Of a stretch of DNA of 64,000 bases, positions 3,211 through 3,296 are shown piece after piece. This stretch comes from Clostridium sp. 26_21 (GTDB lineage Bacteria > Bacillota > Clostridia > TANB77 > CAG-508): contig MNRO01000017.1 of NCBI GenBank assembly GCA_001915995.1, positions 73,402-137,401 on the forward strand, given 5' to 3'. How positions within the stretch are numbered: the first letter of the stretch is position 1; every line of letters starts with the position of its first letter. Below the pieces are notes generated by a model. That model was not told where the DNA came from. It saw nothing but the letters and a program-made list of their open reading frames with translations, and ran no database searches. A program made the translations under genes and the position numbers.

Positions 3211-3296
3211 TACTTCACCTCTTCTCTATAAAAGTAACTTTTTTAATTACATTCCTTTGATTTTTAAAGGAATGTAATTCCTAAAAATCACTTTTA

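Follow-up and report, generated by a model that had tools for sequence, protein, structure and literature searches.

The window, as the whole stretch of 64 kb analysed here is called, holds a secretion-like locus that is syntenic across many species of uncultured gut Clostridia with a GC content of 25%. In the window (1-16400), and likewise in loci L086, L090, L092 and L094, it comprises three small TrbC/pilin-like genes, a TraC-like gene, VirB4, two to four large membrane-protein paralogs and a C39-like peptidase. In the ORF list all long ORFs here lie on the minus strand, and the intercistronic element that is the subject of this work is therefore read as the reverse complement. The order of transcription is a VirB4-like ATPase (8777..10756, minus strand; Pfam P-loop_TraG, AAA_10 and DUF87), P3, hairpin B, P2, hairpin A, P1 and a fourth paralog. 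The initial annotation had placed the repeated element between paralogs 1 and 2 and between 2 and 3, which holds; on the minus strand the series is to be read as VirB4-like gene, P3, hairpin, P2, hairpin, P1.

P3, the first large membrane-protein paralog after the ATPase, has a main ORF of 942 aa (5851..8679, minus), identified from the ORF list, the paralog alignment and a weak T4SS_pilin match of 28.8 bits. P2 (823 aa; 3297..5768, minus) was defined by the ORF list and the paralog alignment, and P1 (980 aa; 268..3210, minus) by the ORF list. These three complete paralogs share 42-59% protein identity and their C-termini are conserved in the alignment. Three paralogs had been counted at first, and the array turns out to have four tandem members: 20 nt beyond P1, with no hairpin in the gap, a GTG at 248 starts a further ORF that runs off the window (1-248, minus) and is recognised by homology to P1, with which it is 41% identical in the membrane core (E = 6e-87 against the full-length copy of 1084 aa in L001:15521-18775). 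The designation "VirB6-like" given to the paralogs finds no support from VirB6, TrbL or PrgH profiles and rests on their position after VirB4 and their membrane-protein character. The profile matches of P1 to P3 are weak ones to T4SS_pilin (19-29 bits, for a gathering threshold of 26.6) and a sub-threshold one to pLS20_p028, and no solved structural relative was found for them. The family is nevertheless large, with 1648 homologs at E values up to 1e-10.

The locus is chromosomal and lies near the replication origin, adjoining gidB, parA and parB in several species. In the window it is some 20 kb from an ORF of 455 aa (29871-31238) in the dnaA position, which we infer to be dnaA from its position and length. 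The flanks examined showed no relaxase gene, and the 12-kb locus had no megablast match in plasmid and phage collections. Because of the lack of a relaxase in these flanks and the origin-proximal gidB/parA/parB setting, the T4SS-like locus looks like a vertically inherited chromosomal system and not a mobile element. A similar origin-proximal placement has been reported for the T4SS of Patescibacteria (PMC12102498).

Two further features of the operon deserve mention in their own right. Directly after a TrbC-like pilin gene (12360-12731), within the secretion operon, an A-tract, a 23-bp stem made entirely of A/U and a run of 10 U form an intrinsic terminator or attenuator (12306-12363, minus), which was missed by a consensus terminator scan because its stem lacks G-C pairs. 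It is probably an attenuator giving an excess of pilin transcript.

The other concerns P3, whose gene is split: an ORF with a signal peptide (ATG at 8757) in frame 0 stops at 8612-8614, and the 942-aa main ORF lies in frame +1. Within the stretch 8612-8757 the putative shift site is a CGG at 8651-8653 (minus strand). Four sequence contexts, at no fewer than three protein positions, have a junction CGG in frame 0 that gives a GGN glycine codon in frame +1: UAU or AAU_CGG_A (window, L001, L097 and L100), GGU_CGG_A (L008 and L090), GGA or GGC_CGG_A, situated elsewhere in the protein (L005, L088 and L089) and AAU_CGG_U (L094 and L095), so that CGG_A occurs three times among the junction types and CGG_U once. 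The first paralog is intact in L004, L006, L007 and L009. CGG is found once among the 15,677 codons of the window's long ORFs, where GGA is found 596 times; this sole in-frame CGG (16251-16253, minus; AAA_CGG_AUA) stands about 35 codons into the ORF of a GGDEF protein (15231-16358). On these sequence patterns, the split has the appearance of programmed +1 frameshifting at a CGG codon that is "hungry" or unassigned. The same CGG_A to GGA motif has been described for +1 frameshifting in glass-sponge mitochondria (PMC5009743).

Position and fold of the two hairpins

The element is a hairpin of about 65 nt on the minus strand, present as copy A between P2 and P1 (3228-3297) and as copy B between P3 and P2 (5788-5851), both delimited by the fold and by covariance model R1. 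The nearly identical blocks from which this work started are thus real, their stems and internal loop being 100% identical at all positions; the sole difference within the hairpin is in the apical loop, AAAAAUC in copy A and GAAUC in copy B. The surrounding DNA is much less alike: identity is 70-76% over the coding sequence upstream and 62% over both the spacer and the coding sequence downstream. A core pattern, ATTACATTCCTTT-N3-12-AAAGGAATGTAAT, matches the 64-kb window exactly twice, at 3246-3278 and 5804-5834, and none of 100 shuffled sequences contained it. When the whole window was scanned with model R1 and no filters, copy A scored 81.9 bits and copy B 80.3 bits; there is no third copy in the 64 kb, the next best score being 22 bits. 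It had been noted that no copy precedes the third paralog, and this is correct; none follows P1 either.

The sense strand folds into a stable structure in both cases (-27.9 kcal/mol, z -6.9, for copy A; -28.4 kcal/mol, z -7.6, for copy B), and the antisense strand folds more weakly (-21.8 and -19.7 kcal/mol) owing to the G·U pairs in the lower stem. The fold has four parts: a lower stem of 13-15 bp, an internal loop of 3 x 2 nt with AGG opposite AA, a perfect upper stem of 14-15 bp and a variable apical loop of 3-7 nt. In copy A, the 5' arm of the lower stem occupies 3283-3295 (extending to 3297) and its 3' arm 3230-3242 (from 3228), the internal loop consists of AGG at 3280-3282 and AA at 3243-3244, and the upper stem joins 3266-3279 (5' arm) to 3245-3258 (3' arm) around an apical loop at 3259-3265. 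In copy B, the corresponding parts are 5839-5851 and 5788-5800 for the arms of the lower stem, AGG at 5836-5838 and AA at 5801-5802 for the internal loop, and 5821-5835 and 5803-5817 for the upper stem, closed by a loop at 5818-5820, all on the minus strand. The duplex thus amounts to 27-29 bp in two coaxial stems, beyond the at least 20 bp (two helical turns) that characterise RNase III signals. The palindrome described initially as a perfect 13-bp inverted repeat is indeed perfect; it measures 14 bp (copy A) or 15 bp (copy B) and is only the upper part of this longer hairpin.

The hairpin fills the gap between the genes: its lower stem starts at the last base of the upstream stop codon, and the hairpin ends 19 nt before the next ATG. 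The P3 stop codon (5851-5853) abuts hairpin B in such a way that its last base, A5851, belongs to the lower stem, and the P2 stop codon (3297-3299) likewise shares sequence with the foot of hairpin A. On the other side, the strong Shine-Dalgarno sequence of the next paralog follows the hairpin end by 6-10 nt: GGAGG of P2 (5773-5777) comes 10 nt after hairpin B, and GAGGUG of P1 (3216-3221) comes 6-8 nt after hairpin A. The distance of 25-35 nt to the ribosome-binding site given in the initial annotation applies to the core repeat and not to the whole hairpin.

Conservation at one junction

Relatives of the locus were sought through its proteins. P2 is encoded on human-gut metagenome contigs and its homologs are numerous in gut assemblies; a protein-based scan with one genome per species gave 13 loci, all from metagenome-assembled genomes of uncultured Clostridia, and more loci were gathered via ever more distant protein homologs, down to 37-39% identity. 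The loci so obtained from about 20 other lineages have the same element at the same junction, immediately behind the stop codon of the first-type paralog and ahead of the paralog that follows. It stands there in every complete protein-derived locus (L004-L011, L013-L015 and L086-L100), across a span of 37-90% protein identity; L012 is truncated and the divergent L016 is without the element. Measured from the first base of the stop codon, the stem starts at a median distance of 2 nt, and the start codon follows the last pair by 16-25 nt in 23 of 24 cases; in L096 the distance to the next start codon is 115 nt. The gap between the VirB4-like gene and P3 has no hairpin in the window, and in L010 and L056 an extra copy is found there, after the VirB4 gene. 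Hence the rules "after the first paralog" and "beside the ribosome-binding site" are not absolute, as L010, L056 and L096 show. The lineages have one to three hairpins and two to four paralogs, and extra paralogs accompany extra hairpins.

Outside this locus the element was not encountered. No further copies were found in about 0.6 Mb of related loci, and the exact core pattern had 0 matches in GTDB representative genomes. A generic pattern, TTTADRAATTASA-N14-34-TSTAATTAAAAAA, was found at 66 loci in the metagenome collection, and those matches that fold (below -19 kcal/mol) are all flanked by a paralog or a VirB4 homolog, while a dozen matches that do not fold have neither in their flanks; in viral contigs the same pattern gave 3 matches only, non-folding and attributable to chance. 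The concern that the motif might be a common genome-wide repeat unrelated to the locus is thereby answered, with two copies in the window and every folding metagenome match in this locus. A dispersed palindrome of the REP/BIME or MITE type was discarded on the same grounds, two copies in the 64 kb and none elsewhere in related loci. No Rfam 15 family matches either copy at E values up to 10, although the element resembles the motifs of that database in being structured, covarying and of the kind catalogued from metagenomes, and no description of the element or of the locus was found in the literature searched.

Pairing was examined in two alignments. In the first (A2), with 24 distinct variants, 95.4% of the cells are paired under the two-stem structure and 12 of 27 pairs show double changes, the slid controls reaching 44-52% of paired cells; RNAalifold independently predicts essentially the same two-stem fold. 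Since some of these variants had been found with a DNA pattern in which the conserved blocks are fixed, the count was made again on an alignment (A3) of 26 distinct instances from protein-derived loci only, none of them obtained via a DNA pattern. Here pairing holds in 96.2% of the cells, and compensatory double changes are seen in 14 of 27 pairs: column 24, for instance, goes from C-G to G-C, column 10 from A-U to G-C, and column 27 from U-A to either A-U or G-C. Slid controls gave 44-51% of paired cells, and none of 500 shuffles reached the A3 values. Nine base pairs are invariant, four U-A at the top of the lower stem and the AAUUA/UAAUU box at the base of the upper stem, and all 26 instances have the G9·U65 wobble of the lower stem. 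G·U is used somewhere in 8 pairs, whereas C·A, which would be the wobble of the other strand, is used in only 2. The internal loop is 3 x 2 nt in all instances, with AGG, AUG, AGA or AAG on its 5' strand, and the conserved blocks are separated by anything from 43 to 50 nt. The compensatory changes, the bias to G·U, the asymmetric loop and the variable spacing therefore point to a folded RNA of the sense strand, the mRNA, rather than to a duplex site. The "RNase III or stabiliser hairpin" among the options first proposed gains from these same features, the invariant G·U included, as far as the hairpin is concerned. With its structure, conservation, strand bias, locus restriction and position established, the element is very probably a functional RNA structure of the sense strand of some kind.

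The apex reads CCUUU/AAAGG in both copies of the window and of L100, and CCUC/GAGG, together with the same longer loop, in both copies of the sister species L097; therefore copies of the same genome change together. In L097 (4442-9699) the first two paralogs are 73.5% identical mutually, versus 63-69% to their positional counterparts in the window, which suggests gene conversion between tandem paralogs. Such conversion may contribute to the identity of same-genome copies, partly in place of selection. In the window, identity ends exactly at the hairpin edges, and this points to selection on the element itself. The three copies of L010 differ by a compensatory pair (AUU/AAU versus ACU/AGU), so homogenisation is incomplete.

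Candidate roles of the hairpin

The role we regard as the likeliest, though we put it forward as a tentative inference that could well prove mistaken, is that of a cis-acting intercistronic signal for the processing and stability of the polycistronic mRNA, of the RNase III or exonuclease-barrier type. An RNase III-type endonuclease specific for double strands would cut at or near the internal loop; alternatively, the hairpin alone would block 3'-to-5' exonucleases and cleavage would not be needed. Either way, the upstream segment, encoding the pilins, the ATPase and the first paralog, would gain a protective 3' hairpin end and its level would be uncoupled from that of the downstream paralogs, each of which would begin translation independently from its own strong Shine-Dalgarno sequence.

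Signals of this kind are well known from phages. In the early mRNA of T7 (R0.3-R1.3, for example R1.1) and in the Bacillus subtilis phage SP82, related hairpins are likewise repeated in intercistronic gaps, with the same succession of lower stem, asymmetric internal loop and upper stem over more than 20 bp; the upstream message keeps a protective 3' hairpin, and copies in the same genome are alike in sequence. The present element differs from them in being cellular and chromosomal, in the far stricter conservation of its helical nucleotides across species and in marking only one or two junctions per operon; its cleavage is a proposal. The REP hairpins of Escherichia coli malE-malF are also intercistronic, where they stall 3' exonucleases and stabilise the upstream mRNA; the present hairpin could be a barrier of this sort and bring about differential expression within the operon. 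Unlike REP sequences, which are dispersed in hundreds of copies, the present element is confined to one locus. Transcripts are also split into hairpin-ended segments of different levels in E. coli papBA, in F traA and in B. subtilis cggR-gapA, the last by RNase Y, but the sites in these operons are single-stranded, A/U-rich RNA cut by RNase E or RNase Y and not long covarying duplexes.

The RNase III of B. subtilis has been reported to recognise a stereotyped sequence-structure motif with base-pair preferences and with U-G wobbles enriched in the distal box (PMC11780869). Such preferences could explain some of the invariant pairs, and the invariant G·U wobble and the A-U box agree qualitatively with that description, the comparison being one with its text and not a score against a position-specific matrix. 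The invariant nucleotides within the helices suggest recognition by a specific factor and not just a stable stem. It is not obvious why a generic barrier or an RNase III site should require nine invariant pairs and an invariant wobble, which fit a dedicated binding factor equally well, and the stems are very A+U-rich; both points weigh against the processing and stability signal.

The same invariance leads to the second reading, that of an RNA operator: a specific RNA-binding protein, either encoded in the locus or a global regulator, would bind the internal loop, the AAUUA/UAAUU box and the G·U wobble and govern either how translation of the downstream paralog is initiated or the polarity of the operon, and cleavage would not be required. 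In its favour are the helix nucleotides that do not vary (nine base pairs, and the G·U in 26 of 26) and the asymmetric internal loop conserved as AGG, AUG, AGA or AAG; moreover, the 16-25 nt from the hairpin end to the start codon place that end where the 5' edge of a 30S footprint would be, and the copies of one genome are identical or change together. Against it, no RNA-binding domain was recognised among the locus proteins examined, and the fold leaves the Shine-Dalgarno sequence unsequestered. In addition, the loop GGA is lost in abundant variants (AUG, AGA and AAG), which speaks against CsrA, and no G·A tandem is present, which, judging by the sequence, speaks against a kink-turn. On balance we consider an RNA operator unlikely.

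A leaky intrinsic terminator or attenuator, perhaps dependent on NusA or NusG, would lower transcription of the downstream paralogs, and the basal A-U pairs would then be the A-tract and the U-tract of a weak terminator. The idea draws on the window itself, where ACUUUU closes the 3' arm, with AU or AAUU behind it and AAAA upstream, and on the attenuator after the pilin gene of this same operon; attenuators within operons are common. The original statement that no U-tract follows the element needs amendment to this extent, for the 3' arm does end in UUUU, yet those U pair with the upstream AAAA. The tail has only 0-4 U across lineages and is absent in L011, L092 and L094 (ACAGUGUAA), and its changes are matched by covariation in the 5' arm (columns 3, 4 and 6 go from A-U to U-A), so that it is pairing and not U-richness that is selected. 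The terminator scan does not call the hairpin, and the real terminators of this genome have runs of 5-10 U. Of what defines an intrinsic terminator, the hairpin has the stable stem-loop (about -28 kcal/mol) and lacks a conserved 3' U-rich tract. Termination thus appears improbable, and we agree with the first opinion that the element is not a terminator, its tail being covarying and not conserved as U-rich while a canonical terminator stands elsewhere in the operon.

The element could finally act as DNA, either as a cruciform or single-strand hairpin driving recombination, gene conversion and module duplication, or as a palindromic operator, for example of the neighbouring LytTR protein. The numbers of hairpins (one to three) and paralogs (two to four) vary together across lineages, the same-genome copies are homogenised, as the 73.5% identity of the flanking paralogs in L097 illustrates, and a dimeric protein changing its specificity would also make both arms covary. 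The strand bias is difficult to accommodate in this way, with G·U exceeding C·A (8 versus 2 pairs) and with an invariant G·U that in duplex DNA would be a mismatch, and the half-sites are asymmetric and vary in spacing by 7 bp. LytTR sites are direct repeats and not inverted ones. Neither a recombinase nor an integrase turned up in the flanks, the element keeps one position within a syntenic and vertically inherited locus beside parAB and gidB, and identity in the window stops exactly at the hairpin edges. A role at the DNA level is in our view improbable. The operator for a dimeric regulator that had been suggested is disfavoured by the spacing of 43-50 nt, the AGG/AA asymmetry and the invariant G·T mismatch between the arms; a recombination hotspot, also suggested, may add to the identity of same-genome copies and cannot explain conservation at one junction across lineages.

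Several more specific candidates failed on sequence grounds. Sequestration of the Shine-Dalgarno sequence or an alternative pairing with it would depend on a CCUUU/AAAGG likeness that occurs only in the window-type and L006-L009 variants and is absent from the AGACACUAUA-type ones. A CsrA site with GGA in the loop is discarded by the abundance of AUG, AGA and AAG variants, a kink-turn by the lack of tandem G·A pairs and of any G on the 3' strand of the loop, and the EndoA/MazF motif UACAU by its presence only in the window, L004, L097 and L100. An integron attC site would show the core sites RYYYAAC / GTTRRRY, an integrase next to it and cassettes whose genes are unrelated; here the 3' arm reads GTTACTT or CTACTT, a misfit to GTTRRRY, the flanks are without an integrase and the genes on either side are paralogs in synteny. 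Translational bypass or readthrough that would fuse these paralogs is at odds with the strong ribosome-binding site and the signal peptide that each downstream gene has of its own, and no matching take-off and landing codons were found. Promoter-like matches were not in excess (130, versus 124 in shuffles of this 25%-GC DNA) and carry no weight for or against an internal promoter.

Structured intercistronic mRNA elements as a kind are well known. The present one is real, selected and specific to its locus, and it is absent from Rfam and from the literature searched: an uncatalogued structured RNA motif with clear covariation, in a clade of uncultured human-gut Clostridia about which there is almost no experimental knowledge. 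With its covariance model the locus can be annotated in metagenomes. Clean targets for mutagenesis are offered by the invariant G·U wobble and the AAUUA box. Since it marks a specific junction of a conserved T4SS-like operon, the element offers a handle on how the expression of the machine is partitioned. A more far-reaching conjecture, to which we would give perhaps one chance in a few, is that of a lineage-specific riboregulator read sequence-specifically by a dedicated factor, a protein or a specialised nuclease, and setting the stoichiometry between the membrane paralogs of the secretion machine. If so, the hairpin copies would co-evolve with that factor in each genome, and they would represent a new RNA-protein regulatory pair rather than a generic stabiliser, in control of a machine related to conjugation systems in reduced gut Clostridia of 25% GC.
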